Assembly: GCA_024644865.1 (NCBI GenBank)
Contig: JAHEGZ010000007.1
Span: 19,677 to 83,676, forward strand
Origin: Aurantimicrobium sp.
Lineage (GTDB): Bacteria; Actinomycetota; Actinomycetes; Actinomycetales; Microbacteriaceae
DNA: 64,000 bases
Direction of reading: 5' to 3'
The stretch's first letter is position 1. Each line of letters opens with the position of its first letter. The notes under the pieces were generated by a model. It made no database searches and was not told the DNA's origin. It was given only the letters and a program-made list of their open reading frames with translations. This document shows positions 2,677-9,792 of the stretch, in pieces. Made by a program: the position numbers and the translations under genes.

Positions 2677-2796
2677 GCGCTTGCTGTACCACAACTGGTT
2701 CTGAGTTACACGCTGTGAGGAGCCTGAGCGGGCGTAGCATAAAAAGCGCCCACTAACGTGTTTCCCCCAACCTTGCGGTGCGGCCTGAGGACATCA

Positions 2797-3048
2797 ATGA
2801 GTATGCACCACAGCGGTATCTCGCCTACCCCCGGTAGACACAACGCGAACGATTCGTTGCGCGCTTTTGGCGAGCGCATCCGTGAGGTTCGCCTGATGCG
2901 AGGTCTTACTCAAATTGAGCTCGCACAGAATGCTGGCGTCGACCGCAAGACGATTAGCCGCATCGAGAACTCGAGATTCTCACCCTCGCTCATCAACGTG
3001 TATGCGATTGCAGACGCGCTAGAGATTGACCCGAAAGAACTGCTCTAG
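2797..3048 (+). CDS. XRE-family helix-turn-helix transcriptional regulator
   Basis: LRAFGERIREVRLMRGLTQIELAQNAGVDRKTISRIENSRFSPSLINVYAIADALEIDPKELL is a canonical HTH_3 domain. ATG 2797 has GAGGA 5 nt upstream; the longest ORF starts at 2758. Confidence 0.8.
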   Translation: MSMHHSGISPTPGRHNANDSLRAFGERIREVRLMRGLTQIELAQNAGVDRKTISRIENSRFSPSLINVYAIADALEIDPKELL

Positions 3049-4610
3049 AGCGTGCCGCTAGCGCCCGACTGTCCGCTCGGATCACTCGAGTCGTGGCGTT
3101 CGTCGATGACGGTCTCGATCGGGCCCGTGTCAGAGCGTGTGGGCAGCTCAGAACGGTGAGCCTCATATCCCACACGGGAACGTGCATCCCCGGGCAGAAG
3201 TTGAGCTGAAACCATGCGTGCCATGTTGTCTCGTCCGCCTGCCAAGAACAACGCGACAGCTTTTGCGCGGTAGTCGGATGCTCGCGCGGACTCGTCAGGT
3301 TCGGCATCGCAAATCTGAGCGAGGAGCAGGTGTGCCTCAGCATTCTCTTCGACGAAGCCGTAGAGGTCAGCGACATCAATGACGCGACGAGCAAGCCCTC
3401 GGGCTTGTTCCGTATGCCCCAGACCGAGTGCGATTTTGGCGACAACGTTCAAGTGAGCAACGCGCTTCTCGTAGTCTTCGCCCCATTCCTCGGGGAGCAT
3501 GCTGGCTAGAGCAGAGTTGGCCTGCTCAAACGCGTCGTTGGAAACGAAATACTCCGCCAGGCGCAGTCGAGCAATCCTGCGGTGAATAGGAAAGCCTTGC
3601 GCTTCACAACGTTCTACAACGGACCAGAGCAGCGCTTCGGCCTCGAAGTCTTTGCCCTCGGCAAAAAGGTTTCCGGCGACGTTGATGTCGCTCACAACGA
3701 GTCGGGCGTCGTTTCCGGTTGATTTGAAGTACGCACGAATGCGTCGTGCGATGTCGTCAGCCTCGGCAAACTCACCCAAGGCGCGAAGCGCATCAACAAT
3801 CAGGGCGTCAATGTCTGCCATGAGTTCGTAGTTATCAAGCTGTGCGTAATACACTCGTGCCTCGCGCAGCAATGGGAGGGCCTCTTGATAGCGGGCGGCC
3901 TCTTGAAGCGTCCAGCCGACACGATACTTGGAGAACATGACTCGCTCTGTCGCCTCGAGGAACTCAAAGAGATCGACGTTTTCACGCAAGTTTTCAAGTG
4001 CTTCGTCGACAAGCCCCATCTTGATCAGTGACTGTGCTAACCTGTCGCGCACTCGGCCAAAGCTCCAACTCTCTTCTTCGTCTTGGAACTCAGTAAGCGC
4101 ACTTGCGTAGGCCTCGCGCGCCTCGGCGTAACGGTTCAGACTCTCGAGCAATTCGCCCTTCTCAAAAAGAGCGCGCCCGGCTTTCGAGCCGGCGTCTCCT
4201 GACTTGTAGAGTCGGGATGCGCTGTCGAACATGTCTAGGGCATCGGCCTTCTTTCCCATCGCGCTCAAGGTCTGAGCGCACCAAAACTCCACGTCGGCCA
4301 ACCAGGTTTCTCGCGCCGAGACACGGTAAAGGTCCATCGCTGAACGGAGCACCCCGAGAGCCTCGCTATACCGGTCACCGTTGTACAGGCAGATGCCTTG
4401 GTGATACATGGCCATGCCGCGGTCAAGTTCGTTATCGGCAGCTACGAAGAGGTCGGCCTCGGCGGCATGGAACGCAGCCGCCTGATCGAACTCTTCGCGG
4501 TTGAAGGCGTAGTGAGCGAGCCCGCGCAATGCATCTGCGCGCTCTTGCACATCTACGCTCTTGGTTTTCTCCCAGAGCTCTGCTTCAGTCGGCATTTCTT
4601 CGTGATCCAT
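3045..4610 (-). CDS. tetratricopeptide-repeat protein, 521 aa, no other domain
   Basis: ATG 4610 is preceded by GGGGGAG. The protein is all-helical with many TPR-like units (EALGVLRSAMDLY, YAEAREAYASALTEF, YQEALPLLREARVYY, FEQANSALASML). No HTH, P-loop or TM segment is seen. Its stop codon overlaps the stop of the XRE gene (3045-3048). Confidence 0.7.
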   Translation of the reverse strand: MDHEEMPTEAELWEKTKSVDVQERADALRGLAHYAFNREEFDQAAAFHAAEADLFVAADNELDRGMAMYHQGICLYNGDRYSEALGVLRSAMDLYRVSARETWLADVEFWCAQTLSAMGKKADALDMFDSASRLYKSGDAGSKAGRALFEKGELLESLNRYAEAREAYASALTEFQDEEESWSFGRVRDRLAQSLIKMGLVDEALENLRENVDLFEFLEATERVMFSKYRVGWTLQEAARYQEALPLLREARVYYAQLDNYELMADIDALIVDALRALGEFAEADDIARRIRAYFKSTGNDARLVVSDINVAGNLFAEGKDFEAEALLWSVVERCEAQGFPIHRRIARLRLAEYFVSNDAFEQANSALASMLPEEWGEDYEKRVAHLNVVAKIALGLGHTEQARGLARRVIDVADLYGFVEENAEAHLLLAQICDAEPDESARASDYRAKAVALFLAGGRDNMARMVSAQLLPGDARSRVGYEAHRSELPTRSDTGPIETVIDERHDSSDPSGQSGASGTL

Positions 4611-4811
4611 GGCACTCCCCCAATTCGCAAGCGGACATTCAGTGTCCACCCACCGACCGACAGTGAAGCACTGCGACACCCCTCACGAGGACGACTTTCA
4701 CCGTGGGCGAACAAGTGTCAGACGTCGAAGCTACCCTTACGCGTGAGCCAAGTATCATTGGGACAATCGTGGTCTATGGCTCTTGGCTCAGTCCACGAAA
4801 ATGGGGGAAAA

Positions 4812-5729
4812 ATGTATCGAGCGATTGCCGCCAATAAGCGAACAACGATTCTGCTGATTGTGGGCTATGTCTTTTTGGTCGTGGGTCTAGGGACTTGGGC
4901 ATCACTGGCCTTGAACTCCCCGTGGCCGGCCATCATCATCATCGGTATCGCGGCGGCCTGGGTCAGCGTTTCTCTTGCCAAAGGCGTGAAACTCGCTCAG
5001 TACCTTGCCGATTGGACACCTGTTTCGCGGGCCGACGAGAGAGACCTGTATGTGACGGTAGAAAACCTCGCGATTCGAAACGGGATGCCAATGCCGATCG
5101 TGTGCATATCCGACGAACCGGACATCAATGCGTTCGCCGTCGGCATGAGCCCGAAGAAGGCGATTGTGGGCATCACGACCGGGGCGCTTGCAACCCTCGA
5201 CGGCACCGAACTTGAAGCAGTTATGTCCCACGAGATGAGCCACATCAAGAACTACGACACTCGAGTAAAAATGGTCATCATTGCACTGATTGGATCGATG
5301 TCGTTTCTTGCCATGTTGTGTTGGGCTTTTGTGATCGCAGCCCTGTCGGGCGAACAAAATGAGCGAAGAAAGGGAGATGACAACAGCGCTGCCCTCATGG
5401 TTGCCGTAGCAGTTGTTGCTGTCATCCCAGCCATCATTTTCTCGATATTGGCGTGGGTACTCGGACCCCTATTCAGTGCAGCCATTTCACGTCAGCGAGA
5501 ATACTTGGCTGATGCCACCGGAGTGGAGATGACTCGTTACCCGGACGGCATGATTAGCATGCTCCGTAAGATACAAGCCCAAGAAAAAGGAATCGCAGCA
5601 CACGGCATGGCCATCGGCGCCCTCTACTTGCACAATGAAAGTCGGGGACTCAAGGATTTGTTCTCAGCGACTCATCCACCCACTCAAAAACGCATCGATC
5701 GCGTTCAAGAGCTGTCCCGGTCGATCTAA
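4812..5729 (+). CDS. htpX: M48-family zinc metalloprotease, HtpX-like
   Basis: ATG 4812 is preceded by GGGGGAAAA. Two N-terminal TM helices, the HEMSHIKNYD zinc motif (HExxH), two more TM helices, and a downstream REYLADATG glutamate. The ORF-track entry 4398-5729 is an unstopped upstream extension. Confidence 0.85.
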   Translation: MYRAIAANKRTTILLIVGYVFLVVGLGTWASLALNSPWPAIIIIGIAAAWVSVSLAKGVKLAQYLADWTPVSRADERDLYVTVENLAIRNGMPMPIVCISDEPDINAFAVGMSPKKAIVGITTGALATLDGTELEAVMSHEMSHIKNYDTRVKMVIIALIGSMSFLAMLCWAFVIAALSGEQNERRKGDDNSAALMVAVAVVAVIPAIIFSILAWVLGPLFSAAISRQREYLADATGVEMTRYPDGMISMLRKIQAQEKGIAAHGMAIGALYLHNESRGLKDLFSATHPPTQKRIDRVQELSRSI

Positions 5730-6550
5730 TTACTAAAGGGGCAACCGGGCCCAGCTGGGAACAAGTGACCGCACGCGTTGTTGAGGCGCATCACCTGAAC
5801 CATCCCGTTGGCATCCTGAAGAGTTCCCGTTCCGGAATCCTTTAGCTGACCGCTTGACACTACGCCGAGCACTCGGCCGAAGTTGTCGACCAGCGGTCCA
5901 CCGGAGTTACCCTCGTTGGCCGCAGCGTCGGTTTCGTAATACTTCTCGTGAACTGCCGAGACAATCCCGAATGTGGCATAGTTTTCACGCCCGAGCGGGT
6001 TACCGACGATGATCGCCCAGCCACCAATGCGCGCCTGCGGCGCTGGCTCGAGGGCTGGGAACTCAGCGGTGAGGTCAATCCGCGCCATGTCTACTCGGTT
6101 TTCAGGGTCGCTTCCCTTCCAAACCTTTGGATCTTTTGCAACGAGCGTGCCCTGATATTTGCGGCCTTGATACTCAACGTCTACCTTTGTTGCCTCGTCG
6201 CAGCCATCAAAAACGTGTGCGGCCGAAATCACGATGGTCTTTACCCCATCCGGTTTCGGGATATCAACAGCAACTCCCGTTCCCATGAAGTCGCCGCAGT
6301 AGACCACAAATGTTGATTTCGAGACCTTTTCAACAACATCGGGGACATTCGGTTGAGCCTGCCAAACCAGGAAGCCCTGCCAACTTCCCAGGGCAATCAC
6401 GGCAACTAAACCGAGGGTGGTGAGCCCGAAGACCCATCGAGAAACTGAGCGTCGATGCCACCTATGAACGTCAACCCGTTCACTGCTGGAAATGTCGGCC
6501 CAGTAACCGTCTGTGTCCAAGCTGTTCCGAAGAATGCGTCTTTTACCCAT
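5726..6550 (-). CDS. membrane-anchored trypsin-like (S1/PA clan) serine protease
   Basis: SD GAGGAAAG lies 6 nt before ATG 6550. N-terminal TM anchor WVFGLTTLGLVAVIALG. Triad candidates are SAAHVF (His), DMARIDL (Asp) and GNSGGPLVD (Ser). Confidence 0.8.
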   Translation of the reverse strand: MGKRRILRNSLDTDGYWADISSSERVDVHRWHRRSVSRWVFGLTTLGLVAVIALGSWQGFLVWQAQPNVPDVVEKVSKSTFVVYCGDFMGTGVAVDIPKPDGVKTIVISAAHVFDGCDEATKVDVEYQGRKYQGTLVAKDPKVWKGSDPENRVDMARIDLTAEFPALEPAPQARIGGWAIIVGNPLGRENYATFGIVSAVHEKYYETDAAANEGNSGGPLVDNFGRVLGVVSSGQLKDSGTGTLQDANGMVQVMRLNNACGHLFPAGPGCPFSN

Positions 6551-6573
6551 GATCTACTTTCCTCAATTGCCTG

Positions 6574-7809
6574 TCACTGCGAAACCATGACGATTCGGTT
6601 TTTCTTACCTCGCGCCTCGACGTACTTTCCGTTTTGGTCCCAATCGTTGTAAGGACCTTTTCCGCCGCCGACGCAAACGATCTTCGACTTAACACCGGCT
6701 TGCTTGAGAACCCCGGCGAAGGCCTGCGCGCGGGCAAGACTGAGATGTGCATCCGCGGCGTTACCGAATTTGTACTGGGCTTTATCAACACCGGACGCGA
6801 CAAATCCCGTGATGGACATCACCCCGGTGCAGTCTGGCTTCAAGGCGATTTGTGCCGCAATTTTCTTTGCACTTGCAGCCGCTGCGCCTGCGTCAATAAA
6901 GGTTGCCGTATTGGGAGCGAATCGCGCGCCATCATCTTCGGTGATTACTGCAGAAAGACAGGGATCTGGCAATGCTTTAGCCGCTGTGACCGGGATTGAG
7001 CCCTTCGCTGGCTGAGTATCCGTTACCTCACGCTGGATGGTTCCAACGTGGCCATTTGATGCCTCGACGATGCCCGTCCAGAAAGACTCCAGACTGTCGA
7101 TGCTCTGTTGGTTGAGTGACGGGGCTGACTTACTGACATGGCCGAGTCCGATGAAATCTACGGTGGCCCCTTTGAGGTCGGGTAATCCTCCGTTGGCTTT
7201 TAGCTGTGCCACGACTCCGTTAACCGTGTTCAGAGGCGGTATGCCGTCTTTTTGCATTGGCCAGGGGGCAGTGGTTTGCAGTGCATTCGATAAGACGACG
7301 ATGTGCTTTGTCGAACCGGCATTGTTAGCGTCGAACGAATCGGCGGCCACTCGAAGACCCTTGAGCACATCAAGCTCGGGGTCAATGGTAACTGACGGGT
7401 CAACTGTGACCGACGGATCACCAATTGCACAGTCATAGACATCCTCGGTGCGGTTGATGGCATAGGTCTGGTCGTTTTCGACATCGACAGAAGGCTGGTT
7501 GCCGTCGATGTCCGTGTATGTGGCAACTCCGGGAGTCCCGTCTGCCAAGACGACAGAAAGCCTGCTCCCGCCGTGGCCCATGGCTGCCTGCACGTTCGGC
7601 GTAATGGCCGGAATGAGATCTCGGAAGTTAACAAAGCTGGTCGTTGGAGCGATGACCAGTGCTACTTCGTTCTTCTTAGCGGCGTCATTGGCATCAGCCG
7701 AGAGTAGCTCTTGGCACTTGGGCGGAGTTGGCGGCACACAGGCAGTCAGCCCAACGGCAGCAATACCAACGAGAGTTGCAAGGGTGAGGCCCCTGATGAC
7801 CTTATGCAT
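6574..7809 (-). CDS. lipoprotein with C-terminal OmpA-like peptidoglycan-binding domain and a possible degenerate vWA-like middle domain
   Basis: Start MHKVIRGLTLATLVGIAAVGLTAC carries a signal peptide plus lipobox (LTAC). The C-terminus ARFAPNTATFID...ITGFVASG...LSLARAQAFAGVLKQAGV...NRIVMV follows the OmpA_C pattern. The middle has alternating beta-alpha elements (VALVIAPTTS, HIVVLSNALQT, VDFIGLG) without an intact DxSxS MIDAS motif. ATG 7809 overlaps the upstream stop by 8 nt (ATGCATAA). Confidence 0.65.
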   Translation of the reverse strand: MHKVIRGLTLATLVGIAAVGLTACVPPTPPKCQELLSADANDAAKKNEVALVIAPTTSFVNFRDLIPAITPNVQAAMGHGGSRLSVVLADGTPGVATYTDIDGNQPSVDVENDQTYAINRTEDVYDCAIGDPSVTVDPSVTIDPELDVLKGLRVAADSFDANNAGSTKHIVVLSNALQTTAPWPMQKDGIPPLNTVNGVVAQLKANGGLPDLKGATVDFIGLGHVSKSAPSLNQQSIDSLESFWTGIVEASNGHVGTIQREVTDTQPAKGSIPVTAAKALPDPCLSAVITEDDGARFAPNTATFIDAGAAAASAKKIAAQIALKPDCTGVMSITGFVASGVDKAQYKFGNAADAHLSLARAQAFAGVLKQAGVKSKIVCVGGGKGPYNDWDQNGKYVEARGKKNRIVMVSQ

Positions 7810-9022
7810 CTTCGTCACCGGCGGCCTTATCTGCGTTCGGGCGGCCAAACTTGCTCTTGTATTTGGCGCGAATCTTGGCGACGCGACCCGGTGAGGCATC
7901 ACCAACACCGGTCAGGTACGCCGCCGAAAACTCAACATTTCCGATCTGGTTCACGAGCGCCCTGCGATACGTACTCTTTGCTGCGTTGGCCAATTCTTCA
8001 CGAGCAGAGTTGACGGCGTCAGTGAAACCTGCCTCGGCAACGTCGAGGGATGCCTGAATTGCTGGGATCTGAGATTGCGCCTGCGCCAAACGCATTTTGG
8101 AACGCAATTCGCGTTTTCTCGACTTTTCCAGAGCAAAAAGTAGTCGCGAATAGATGGTTTCGTGGGGGTTGTGGCGAGCCGCAGAAAGCAGAAGCCAGGT
8201 GCCCAAGCCAATCAGCATGAAGAAGTTTCCGAAGGTGAGCGAGTCGTGCAGAAAAGAAGGCATGTGCCGATCGAGCGCCTGAAAATAGTTCATTCGGAGA
8301 GAAGTGAGCACGAGGGCGAAGCCAATCCACACAACAAACAAGACGATTGCCTCAATCGCATTCACAATCTTGCGCGGGTGTTTGTGCATCATCAAACTGA
8401 TTCGACTGCCGATGAAGTGCGGAAACACGAGCTGGACACCCACTGTCGGGAGCGTGAAGATGATGGCTTCGACCATCTTGAACCCGTGAATCTTCAAGAA
8501 GGAGTTGTAGATGATGCCCAGGTCAACTCCGCCCACAATGACGAAAATCAGGTAAGGCATGGCCAGACGAAGTGCTCCGTTGAACAGTGACGTTTGCTCG
8601 GGTGGGGTGCCCTTCCAAATAAGTCCGTGTTTTCCGGGTTTGTCGCCCTTCAGAATTTCACGCTGCTCCTCGAGCTCATTCTCGCGAGCAGCGATGTCAT
8701 CCTCAATCGCCTTGTGCTCCTGAGCGGCGTCGATGATTTCGGCTTCGGCCTTGAGCAGGGCGTGGCGCTGCTGAAGAGCGGCACGCCGACCACGGTCGAG
8801 AAGTCGAACCTGCACGAGAGACAGTCGGTCATCAACTGCTCGTTCATAAGGCATCTGCTCGAGACCGTTCTCTGAGAAGAGGAACTCGTCGTAAGCGCCC
8901 GACATGCGGTCTTGATCTGCGGCAGTCGCGGAAGCCGCAAGCAGTTCGTTGTCATCAACTGAATTTGCCAATTCAGGCATTGCGAGCGGACCATAGGTTT
9001 TGTCACGCCTATTGCGAGCCAT
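7802..9022 (-). CDS. 4-TM membrane protein with N- and C-terminal coiled-coil regions (hypothetical)
   Basis: 406 aa. A charged heptad-like stretch lies around residues 70-125 (RRAALQQRHALLKAEAEIIDAAQEHKAIEDDIAARENELEEQREIL). Four hydrophobic helices span roughly residues 150-285. A second helical, charged region follows (EKSRKRELRSKMRLAQAQSQIPAIQASLDVAEAG...). The start ATG shares one nucleotide with the upstream stop (TAATG). Confidence 0.6.
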   Translation of the reverse strand: MARNRRDKTYGPLAMPELANSVDDNELLAASATAADQDRMSGAYDEFLFSENGLEQMPYERAVDDRLSLVQVRLLDRGRRAALQQRHALLKAEAEIIDAAQEHKAIEDDIAARENELEEQREILKGDKPGKHGLIWKGTPPEQTSLFNGALRLAMPYLIFVIVGGVDLGIIYNSFLKIHGFKMVEAIIFTLPTVGVQLVFPHFIGSRISLMMHKHPRKIVNAIEAIVLFVVWIGFALVLTSLRMNYFQALDRHMPSFLHDSLTFGNFFMLIGLGTWLLLSAARHNPHETIYSRLLFALEKSRKRELRSKMRLAQAQSQIPAIQASLDVAEAGFTDAVNSAREELANAAKSTYRRALVNQIGNVEFSAAYLTGVGDASPGRVAKIRAKYKSKFGRPNADKAAGDEDA

Positions 9023-9636
9023 TATTTGCGCACCTTTCGAACGAGCGGCGGATCATCGTGGTCGAATCCTTCGACTTCAACGAGGGGAATCGACTCCATG
9101 GCAGGAATCTCGGCCTGAACCGAAGAGACGTCTCGCACACCAGCGTTCGCTCGCGCCCGAGTGTAAATAGCAGCAATTTGCGAGTAATAGCGAACCCATG
9201 TTTCCAGCGCCTGCTCTGCAATTTGAATCGTTCCTCGGCCCTTCGTAACGTTCGCACGCCACTGGGCTTCGAGATTTGATACCTGAGCTTCGAGGCGCCC
9301 CAAACGCAGACCGTTCTGGTGCTGAACGCGAGGTGACGTGCTCCGGTCATTGGCCAGAAGTTCGATTTCTTCAGTTGCCTTGCGGAGCCCGACAAGGATT
9401 CGCTCGTTGCCGGTTTGATCAGGCCCTACTTGATTGATCAACCACGCATTGACATTGTGCTGTCCTCGCTGTGCCTCACTTGCGGCCCGAATAAGCGAGT
9501 GAGTGGCTGTCACGTCGAGAAGGGCCCCGTATTTTCTAGCGTCAGCTTTGCCTAATCTCACCCATTTTTGGGCCTTATAAGTACTCACTTCATTGGGCGC
9601 GGCAGGCGGCGCGCTTGAGTCTTTACGACGAGCCAA
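9022..9636 (-). CDS. hypothetical soluble helical protein (204 aa)
   Basis: The ORF track begins at GTG 9672. However, TTG 9636 is preceded by AAAGGGGGGA with a 5-nt spacer, so I prefer it as the start. No TM segment. Helical or coiled stretch: LRLGRLEAQVSNLEAQWRANV. No recognisable family. Confidence 0.5.
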   Translation of the reverse strand: MARRKDSSAPPAAPNEVSTYKAQKWVRLGKADARKYGALLDVTATHSLIRAASEAQRGQHNVNAWLINQVGPDQTGNERILVGLRKATEEIELLANDRSTSPRVQHQNGLRLGRLEAQVSNLEAQWRANVTKGRGTIQIAEQALETWVRYYSQIAAIYTRARANAGVRDVSSVQAEIPAMESIPLVEVEGFDHDDPPLVRKVRK

Positions 9637-9792
9637 AGTAATCCCCCCTTTATTGCAGGGCACTAAGCCCACCTGTAACTCGAAGTGTGGCGTGTGCGAC
9701 TGACAACGAGAGCAGAATTTCAGGTTATCCCAAATATGCCCCCACGCCTATTGGGGCGCAGCTGCAACAACGCGTAGTGATTACGCGAATAA

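Follow-up and report, generated by a model that had tools for sequence, protein, structure and literature searches.

The Zorya proteins ZorA and ZorB (PMC11946911) combine an OmpA-like tie to peptidoglycan with a long cytoplasmic helical extension, soluble cytoplasmic partners and a proposed logic of envelope-perturbation sensing, and proteins with a vWA (von Willebrand factor A) domain coupled to TolQ-like motors have been proposed as force transducers (PMC12204202). Other described systems share parts of this composition: FtsZl1-vWA-OmpA operons (Makarova and Koonin 2010, PMC2875224) and those of the vWA membrane proteins BatA/BatB bring together vWA proteins that are exported or membrane-bound, OmpA-like proteins and coiled-coil cytoplasmic proteins of unknown function, and the DegS-RseA-RseP sigma-E pathway and HtrA proteases place a wall-facing, N-terminally anchored HtrA-family domain alongside a membrane protein and a cytoplasmic partner. 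Here we analysed a four-gene operon, g1-g2-g3-g4, that recalls each of these systems and lies in a 64,000-nt stretch of DNA (the window) from the actinobacterium Aurantimicrobium sp. (Microbacteriaceae; assembly GCA_024644865.1, contig JAHEGZ010000007.1, positions 19,677 to 83,676). The operon and its translational coupling are real and conserved across loci. Its conserved core is the triad g1+g2+g3, and most of g2 together with all of g3 forms a hypervariable cassette that is exchanged as a unit between lineages. We tentatively read the operon as encoding a trans-envelope module, hitherto undescribed, that would sense the wall and interact with phages.

An earlier note on this DNA, made from the sequence alone, had assigned g1 to the cytoplasm, g2 to the membrane and both g3 and g4 to the wall side and had listed no ATPase, nuclease or kinase among them; predicted topology agrees with the former statement, and the latter holds. 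This layout recalls all the traits of ZorA/ZorB named above, but g2 has no detectable ZorA/MotA homology, the module has no ZorC/ZorD-like nuclease or helicase, and its host is a monoderm; moreover, ZorB is a plug-helix protein with an Asp, whereas g3 is lipid-anchored and includes a vWA domain. With TolQ/ExbB-vWA transducers and Tol-Pal (PMC12204202) the operon shares an exported vWA-fold protein with a multi-helix membrane partner, OmpA-like wall binding and, in the window, a nearby tetratricopeptide repeat (TPR) gene. Those systems, however, are found in diderms, g2 resembles TolQ/ExbB in neither sequence nor fold, g3 has no SHLS motif or trans-pore helix, and the TPR gene is not present in the related locus L002. 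Compared with DegS-RseA-RseP and HtrA, g4 lacks a PDZ domain and scores far under the NCBIfam cut-offs, the window holds no sigma/anti-sigma pair, and the protease falls outside the core. Unlike the FtsZl1-vWA-OmpA and Bat operons, the module has neither an FtsZ-like GTPase nor a MoxR ATPase, its vWA and OmpA-like domains are fused in one lipoprotein, and its metal-ion-dependent adhesion site (MIDAS) is degenerate. The TolQ-vWA transducers and the FtsZl1-vWA-OmpA operons are thematic neighbours only, and literature searches (vWA/OmpA/trypsin/anti-phage; Zorya-like systems in Actinobacteria; Rhodoluna islands) likewise returned thematic neighbours and no description of the module.

The four open reading frames (ORFs) all lie on the minus strand and span 9636/9672..5726 of the window, with their junctions exactly where the earlier note, which described co-directional genes with overlaps and one short gap, had put them. 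The g1 stop (9024-9022) and the g2 start (9022-9020) have one base in common within TAATG, the g2 stop and the g3 start overlap in ATGCATAA (7809-7802), and g3 is separated from g4 by 23 nt that include the Shine-Dalgarno sequence GAGGAAAG. The start of g1 is ambiguous: the TTG at 9636 (204 aa) has AAAGGGGGGA ahead of it, the longest ORF runs from a GTG at 9672 (216 aa), and gene callers predicted a 213-aa product on identical metagenome contigs. Neither internal promoters nor terminators were found within the operon above shuffle expectation, and alignment of the upstream regions gave, by eye, a TAnnnT-like element alone. A structured leader or riboswitch ahead of g1 was rejected, the folds of five loci being no stabler than shuffles (z 0 to -2.5); an Rfam search upstream of g1 gave no match.

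Scans of genomes and metagenomes recovered this gene order in 58 distinct loci of Luna-cluster (Rhodoluna-type) Microbacteriaceae. Counted over the loci with room for each gene, g1 stands ahead of g2 in 44/44, g3 follows g2 in 48/48, and g4 follows g3 in 38/42; throughout, neighbouring genes either overlap or lie no more than 27 nt apart. Named sources of g2 comprise Rhodoluna, Microbacteriaceae, Micrococcales and Actinomycetota metagenome-assembled genomes (MAGs), the isolate Microbacteriaceae bacterium MWH-Ta3 (L001; a 1.54-Mb genome record), and one contig binned as Methylophilaceae. On the latter (L017, RFOR01000004.1), g1-g2-g3 are of the Rhodoluna type and match L062 at 98-100% identity, with a g3 ORF reading through to 650 aa; the contig is probably actinobacterial and mis-binned.

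Within this conserved frame, the middle of the operon diverges sharply. Pairs of loci that are close in g1, g4 and htpX (a gene convergent with g4) differ widely in g2 and g3: given as percent amino-acid identity in the order g1, g2, g3, g4, htpX, we found 98, 65, 50, 96, 100 for L052 and L057; 98, 66, 49, 95, 97 for L012 and L015; 94, 61, 52, 90, 94 for L013 and L016; 95, 59, 50, 91, 95 for L014 and L061; and 94, 57, 54, 88 for L008 and L037, which has no htpX value. The more distant comparison of the window with L002 gave 62, 47, 41, 85, 69, with dapF, upstream of the operon, 85% identical; nucleotide identity in this pair is 40-55% in ~8860..6580 and 75-80% in dapF, miaA and g4. Along the pairs, sliding nucleotide identity is ~90-95% in g1, falls to 45-60% within the first ~150 nt of g2, remains at that level up to ~60 nt ahead of the g3 stop and recovers to 80-100% over g4 and htpX; the break points are sharp and lie just inside the g2 start and just ahead of the g3 stop. 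Within g2, residues 15-55 (the N-terminal motif) keep 95-97% identity while variation extends to the cytoplasmic coiled-coil parts, and g3 varies evenly over both its domains. Most of these loci are MAG or metagenome contigs, and the pattern repeats in independent assemblies on contigs of 20-136 kb.

In a comparison of 15 Rhodoluna pairs, identity matrices for g1, g4 and htpX intercorrelate at r=0.91-0.98 and correlate at ~0 with those of g2 and g3, which correlate with each other at 0.50. Nearest neighbours disagree as well: for g2, L012 has its closest counterpart in L013 (80%), whereas for the flanks it is L015. Fast evolution alone was rejected as the cause of the divergence, since g2 and g3 have other nearest neighbours than the flanks do; this points instead to an exchange of alleles through recombination within the conserved flanks. 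There are also control pairs, L004/L006 and L015/L063, that are similar in every gene. Because deeply diverged alleles of the two genes move together by recombination, g2 and g3 are probably a co-adapted physical pair, and negative frequency-dependent selection, most plausibly exerted by phages, probably acts on the outward part of the module. Diverged alleles at one locus between conserved flanks are also known from replacement flexible islands and polymorphic receptors such as Myxococcus TraA/TraB, in which, as here, a surface protein and an OmpA-domain function are involved; the variable unit here is instead a pair of membrane protein and lipoprotein, and the locus has neither glycosyltransferases nor a PA14-type receptor.

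Features of the operon and its immediate surroundings (positions in the window; AF2, AlphaFold2)
Feature	Position	Strand	Description	Basis
g1	9022..9636	-	~204 aa, soluble, predicted cytoplasmic	ORF, Shine-Dalgarno sequence
g2	7802..9022	-	406-aa membrane protein	ORF, AF2 model
g3	6574..7809	-	411 aa, predicted exported lipoprotein, vWA-fold and OmpA-like domains	AF2, Foldseek, PDB profile
g4	5726..6550	-	274 aa, N-terminally anchored HtrA-like serine protease without PDZ	Trypsin_2
Hypervariable cassette	6580..8860	-	g2 from about residue 55 on and whole g3	Drop in nucleotide identity
dapF-g1 intergenic region	9637..9792	-	Presumed site of promoter and leader	
htpX	4812..5729	+	M48 membrane metalloprotease	NCBIfam HtpX, E 1e-69

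The AF2 model of g2 (a monomer; pLDDT 82, pTM 0.60) is all-helical, with short helices at 24-49 followed by a long one at 58-125, then four transmembrane (TM) helices at 146-176, 183-212, 218-250 and 256-282 joined by loops of 5-6 residues, and a second long helix at 286-360. Since the inner loop and the N-terminus are basic, both long helices, of ~70 residues each, are predicted to be cytoplasmic, in agreement with the four-TM protein flanked by cytoplasmic helical regions that had first been read from the sequence. An N-terminal acidic motif (D38, SGAYDEFLFSE) is conserved. D38, P201, R243 and Y352 are invariant family-wide, D45, G205, N285 and T366 nearly so, and the acidic residue of TM1, D167, never varies among close homologues and is D or E in distant members. 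With 130 representatives at 50% identity among 1.84 billion, the family is small, and it stands apart from all libraries searched: g2 has no Pfam-A match at E<0.1 and none in NCBIfam or PHROGs, its only PADLOC hit is to PD-Lambda-1 at E=0.049 with no match to a Zorya model, and its profile finds coiled-coil noise only among PDB sequences. Ten distant g2 relatives likewise fall in no Pfam family. Foldseek returned no match for the g2 model at E<=1e-3 in PDB or BFVD and no stator among the PDB top 50, and the assignment of g2 as a MotA/ExbB/TolQ/ZorA stator subunit finds no match in Pfam, PADLOC, the PDB profile or Foldseek. A weak relative (P0277, 699 aa, metagenomic; E 2.7e-4) has a g2-like N-terminal half, an extra TM helix and then an exported domain in which 'VDISGS' resembles an intact vWA MIDAS; as a 'Rosetta stone' g2-g3 fusion it is no more than a lead, given that neither the g3 hidden Markov model nor Pfam matches its C-terminal domain.

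The g3 product bears the lipobox LTAC, and its AF2 model (pLDDT 88) resolves into a vWA-fold domain at ~45-260 and an OmpA-like domain at ~290-411. The earlier note had recognised the lipoprotein signal and the OmpA-like C-terminus, both of which stand, and had overlooked the N-terminal fold. In Foldseek this vWA/Rossmann-like alpha-beta half matches BatB best (3ibs, E 2.5e-5), followed by integrin I domains, vWF A1, CLCA1 and TFIIH p44, with probability 1.0 for all, and has no Pfam VWA match. The MIDAS (DxSxS...T...D) is not preserved: A-P-T-x-x stands at the DxSxS position and L-S-N-G, with invariant N175, at the distal Asp. The C-terminal half matches an OmpA-like PDB profile (6u83, E 3.4e-6) and, in Foldseek, OprF, OmpA, MotB-C and YfiB at target TM-scores of 0.55-0.70. 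It carries the LSxxRA and NR.V motifs, with R360 and R405 invariant and N404 nearly so; the Pfam OmpA score of the window g3 is below threshold (18.3 vs gathering 27.2), and the family is recorded for many homologues.

In OmpA-like domains, the Asp of an Asp/Arg pair (GHTD motif) binds meso-diaminopimelic acid. The position of this motif in g3, aligned by eye, reads G-F-V-A-S-G, with A338 and S339 nearly invariant; because Microbacteriaceae have B-type peptidoglycan, an altered peptidoglycan pocket is plausible. Conserved cysteines in g3 (Cys32, 127, 284 and 327), like the conserved Cys pairs in g4, point to export, and the type of anchor varies by allele class between a lipobox and a plain TM anchor. 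The N-terminus of g3 has no trans-pore helix with a conserved Asp of the MotB/ExbD/TolR/ZorB kind, and the protein has no match in PADLOC.

The partner at the cytoplasmic end, g1, has no hydrophobic segment (maximum 19-residue Kyte-Doolittle value 0.82), as befits the soluble protein of 204 aa first predicted, save for the ambiguity of its start (204/213/216 aa). No family was found for it in Pfam, NCBIfam, PADLOC or PHROGs, and a profile of 20 sequences gave coiled-coil noise only against PDB (E>=0.034). Two candidate identities were rejected: a sigma or helix-turn-helix (HTH) protein, for which the sole NCBIfam matches (E ~0.01-0.06) are far under cut-off, and, by sequence, PspA/IM30/ESCRT-III, for which there is no Pfam or NCBIfam match and only noise in the PDB profile.

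At the other end of the operon, g4 has the trypsin fold and catalytic triad (Trypsin_2, E=1.2e-20; HtrA/DegP structures in PDB, E ~1e-11). A conserved cytoplasmic tail (RDTNGIW-like, D12..W17) and one TM helix precede an HtrA-like protease domain in which H112, D154 and the Ser of GNSGGP align as expected and are invariant in all full-length homologues, which bears out the initial description of an anchored, outward-facing protease with an intact triad. Pfam detects no PDZ domain, the protein ends ~40 residues past the catalytic Ser, in NCBIfam it reaches at best 67 bits vs an HtrA/DegS cut-off of 416, and the only PADLOC hit is to the protease part of RT-Protease_XI (3e-7). Between L015 and L063/L064, g1, g2, g3 and htpX are 94-98% identical and g4 only 85%, and g4 may occasionally be exchanged independently of g2 and g3.

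Distant relatives, with 17-28% g2 identity, were looked up on their contigs and help to delimit the core. At L025, L026 and L028, homologues of g1 (hmmsearch E 1e-13 to 7e-8) and g3 (E 1e-34 to 4e-19) stand beside g2 with no protease; L029, with no protease either, has genes of the triad's sizes and order, a likeness by size and order alone; and at L032 the g2 relative is followed by an OmpA-domain gene. Because distant relatives keep g1+g2+g3 without a protease, g4 is a lineage-specific accessory added to the triad. The earlier note had proposed a candidate undescribed trans-envelope system with a proteolytic output. Of this proposal the operon, the predicted layout and the lack of a nameable family for g1 and g2 (none in Pfam, NCBIfam, PADLOC or PHROGs, and empty PDB profiles) have stood. 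The proteolytic output has not stood as a core property, g4 being absent from 4/42 Luna-type loci with room for it and from all distant g1+g2+g3 relatives, and the variability of g2 and g3 had escaped notice. Nor is the quartet confined to this genome, as the 58 loci attest, and profile searches put g1 and g2 in no characterised system. That note's further statement that no sigma/anti-sigma component is present holds in the window, where Pfam and NCBIfam detect no extracytoplasmic function (ECF) sigma factor or anti-sigma domain, and needs qualifying for the wider family. At L027 (1016-3494), an ECF-sigma-like ORF (Sigma70_r4_2) takes the place of g1 and overlaps the start of a 636-aa g2 homologue with ~300 extra N-terminal residues and further hydrophobic segments, followed by an OmpA protein, making this locus a possible sigma/anti-sigma version of the module.

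Genomic surroundings vary between lineages. At least six left flanks were found: dapF; prs; a rhodanese or methyltransferase gene; purL; a RecB-like helicase; and a VWA/DSPc island. This island lies directly upstream of the module in two Rhodoluna MAGs, L012 (1199-7203) and L013, is missing from L015 despite near-identical flanks, and encodes a cytoplasmic VWA protein with intact DxSxS, a phosphatase (DSPc), a member of the histone-deacetylase family, a chaperone-like TY-Chap3 protein and a Nudix regulator resembling NrtR; in appearance it is a cassette of its own, of the conflict type. Among distant triads, some adjoin Cas6/Cas1/Cas2 and others a PLD-DEAD-DUF3427 helicase, an ADP-ribosylglycohydrolase and a PIN gene, on a handful of contigs. 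On the other side, a convergent htpX adjoins the module in 21/58 loci (present in L002, L012-L016, L018-L020 and L052-L064; missing at L001, L004 and L010) and overlaps the g4 end by 4 nt in the window; it often adjoins the module without being proven to belong to it. Its pairwise identities in six Rhodoluna loci track those of g1 and g4 (r=0.92-0.98), and it may travel with the module or share a stable site.

These elements can be arranged into a provisional mechanism. In the cytoplasmic membrane, the four TM helices of g2 would contain a conserved carboxylate, buried, together with a Pro-His motif and an Arg, and its two long helices would extend into the cytoplasm, where the soluble g1 would dock on the near-invariant N-terminal acidic motif. 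Outside, the lipid-anchored g3 would grip peptidoglycan through its OmpA-like domain and contact a protein or ligand through its metal-independent vWA domain. A disturbance or binding event at the wall would shift g3 relative to the membrane, g2 would relay the shift through the membrane to g1 and to its own cytoplasmic stalk, and g4 would process g3 or its bound ligand outside. A more specific version, which we consider unlikely, makes the module a new class of envelope immune sensor in monoderms: the peptidoglycan-anchored g3 receptor and its co-adapted g2 transducer would form an exchangeable specificity cassette, passed among strains as ancient alleles, and the module would recognise phage attack at the wall and signal to the cytoplasm via g1, a functional analogue of Zorya built from unrelated proteins.

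On the general reading as a trans-envelope module, we would favour a role in phage sensing or defence over a housekeeping role, with a logic like that of ZorAB and no homology to it, and the CRISPR-Cas, helicase, ADP-ribosylglycohydrolase and PIN neighbours of some distant triads lean towards a role in conflict. Several observations weigh against this preference. The operon encodes no recognisable effector (nuclease, NADase or pore toxin), none of its proteins qualifies as a defence-system component in PADLOC-DB 2.0 (a library of systems to 2023), the association with defence genes comes without statistics from those few contigs, no g2 or g3 relatives were found on phages (IMG/VR) or plasmids (PLSDB), and the g2 model is that of a monomer with a pTM of only 0.60. 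Retention of the module in the 1.54-Mb genome of MWH-Ta3 would also fit a physiological role, and hypervariability is equally expected of a housekeeping surface structure used as a phage receptor. Such a structure, possible though on balance somewhat unlikely, would tether membrane to wall (anchoring the membrane to a thin wall or securing envelope integrity in ultramicrobacteria), and its g2-g3 pair would be a replacement flexible island that varies to escape phages. It would account for a g3 predicted to be wall-bound and exposed and varying evenly along its whole length, for carriage by so small a genome, for the proximity of htpX, a membrane-protein quality-control protease, in 21/58 loci, and for the want of a defence effector or PADLOC match. 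It sits less easily with the variability of the cytoplasmic coiled-coil parts of g2, with the movement of the module among at least six genomic contexts, with its restriction to a narrow clade and scattered distant actinobacterial contigs, and with the defence-type neighbourhoods of some distant triads.

A regulatory role in envelope stress, in which g4 and possibly HtpX would cleave a component upon misfolding of wall or secreted proteins and so release g1 from g2 for action in the cytoplasm, as in DegS-RseA, draws on the membrane-anchored HtrA/DegS-family protease with its intact triad and conserved cytoplasmic tail, on the ECF-sigma-like gene that replaces g1 and overlaps an N-terminally extended g2 homologue at L027, and on the htpX and XRE-type HTH genes near the operon. 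We regard it as distinctly unlikely, with a protease that is dispensable within the family, external g2 loops of ~5-6 residues that would make poor site-1 substrates, no DNA-binding or sigma-like signature in g1, and no explanation for the hypervariability of g2 and g3. Still less probable is an ion-driven, stator-like machine comparable to MotAB, TolQR-Pal or TolQ-vWA, in which a g2 oligomer would conduct protons or cations via its buried carboxylate and drive, or be gated by, the wall-anchored vWA-OmpA partner. The family-wide D/E in TM1, kept with the Pro-His motif and the Arg, the MotB-C-resembling OmpA-like domain of g3 next to its vWA domain, and the proposal of vWA proteins coupled to TolQ-like motors (PMC12204202) all speak for it. 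Yet g2 matches neither Pfam nor PADLOC, MotA_ExbB and ZorA models included, its model has no Foldseek match at E<=1e-3, g3 is lipid-anchored and without an Asp-bearing trans-pore helix, and a monoderm host has no outer membrane to energise. That the four genes are unrelated envelope genes co-transcribed by chance is extremely improbable, given an order and overlapping junctions kept in 58 loci and many contexts, a triad kept at <20% g2 identity, and the exchange of g2 and g3 as a unit.

Further features of the window lie around the operon. Upstream are dapF, miaA and miaB. Beyond htpX, a gene for a 544-aa TPR protein (TPR_12, SNAP-like and MalT-like TPR; 3045-4679, minus strand) lies between htpX and an XRE-type HTH gene (2758-3048); because it is present in identical metagenome contigs (L022) and absent from the related locus L002, it appears to be a lineage-specific insertion adjoining the module. 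A SAM-IV riboswitch (Rfam RF00634, 67.6 bits vs gathering 38) at 864-977 on the plus strand overlaps the start of an ORF at 952-1419 and is unrelated to the operon.

Of the core triad, g1 and g2 belong to families without sequence relatives in the libraries searched, g2 also being without a structural relative, and we have not found described the composition of cytoplasmic adaptor, four-TM coiled-coil protein and vWA-OmpA lipoprotein, with or without an HtrA-like protease. The hosts are abundant ultrasmall freshwater Actinobacteria whose phage interactions and envelope biology are poorly understood, and MWH-Ta3 is a carrier deposited under an isolate name. The exchange of g2-g3 alleles inside flanks that are 96-100% identical would mark a locus under strong frequency-dependent selection. 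If the module is indeed a wall-breach sensor, the Zorya-type principle would extend to monoderms by non-homologous parts; if it is instead a phage receptor complex, it would be one of the chief determinants of host range among these bacteria.

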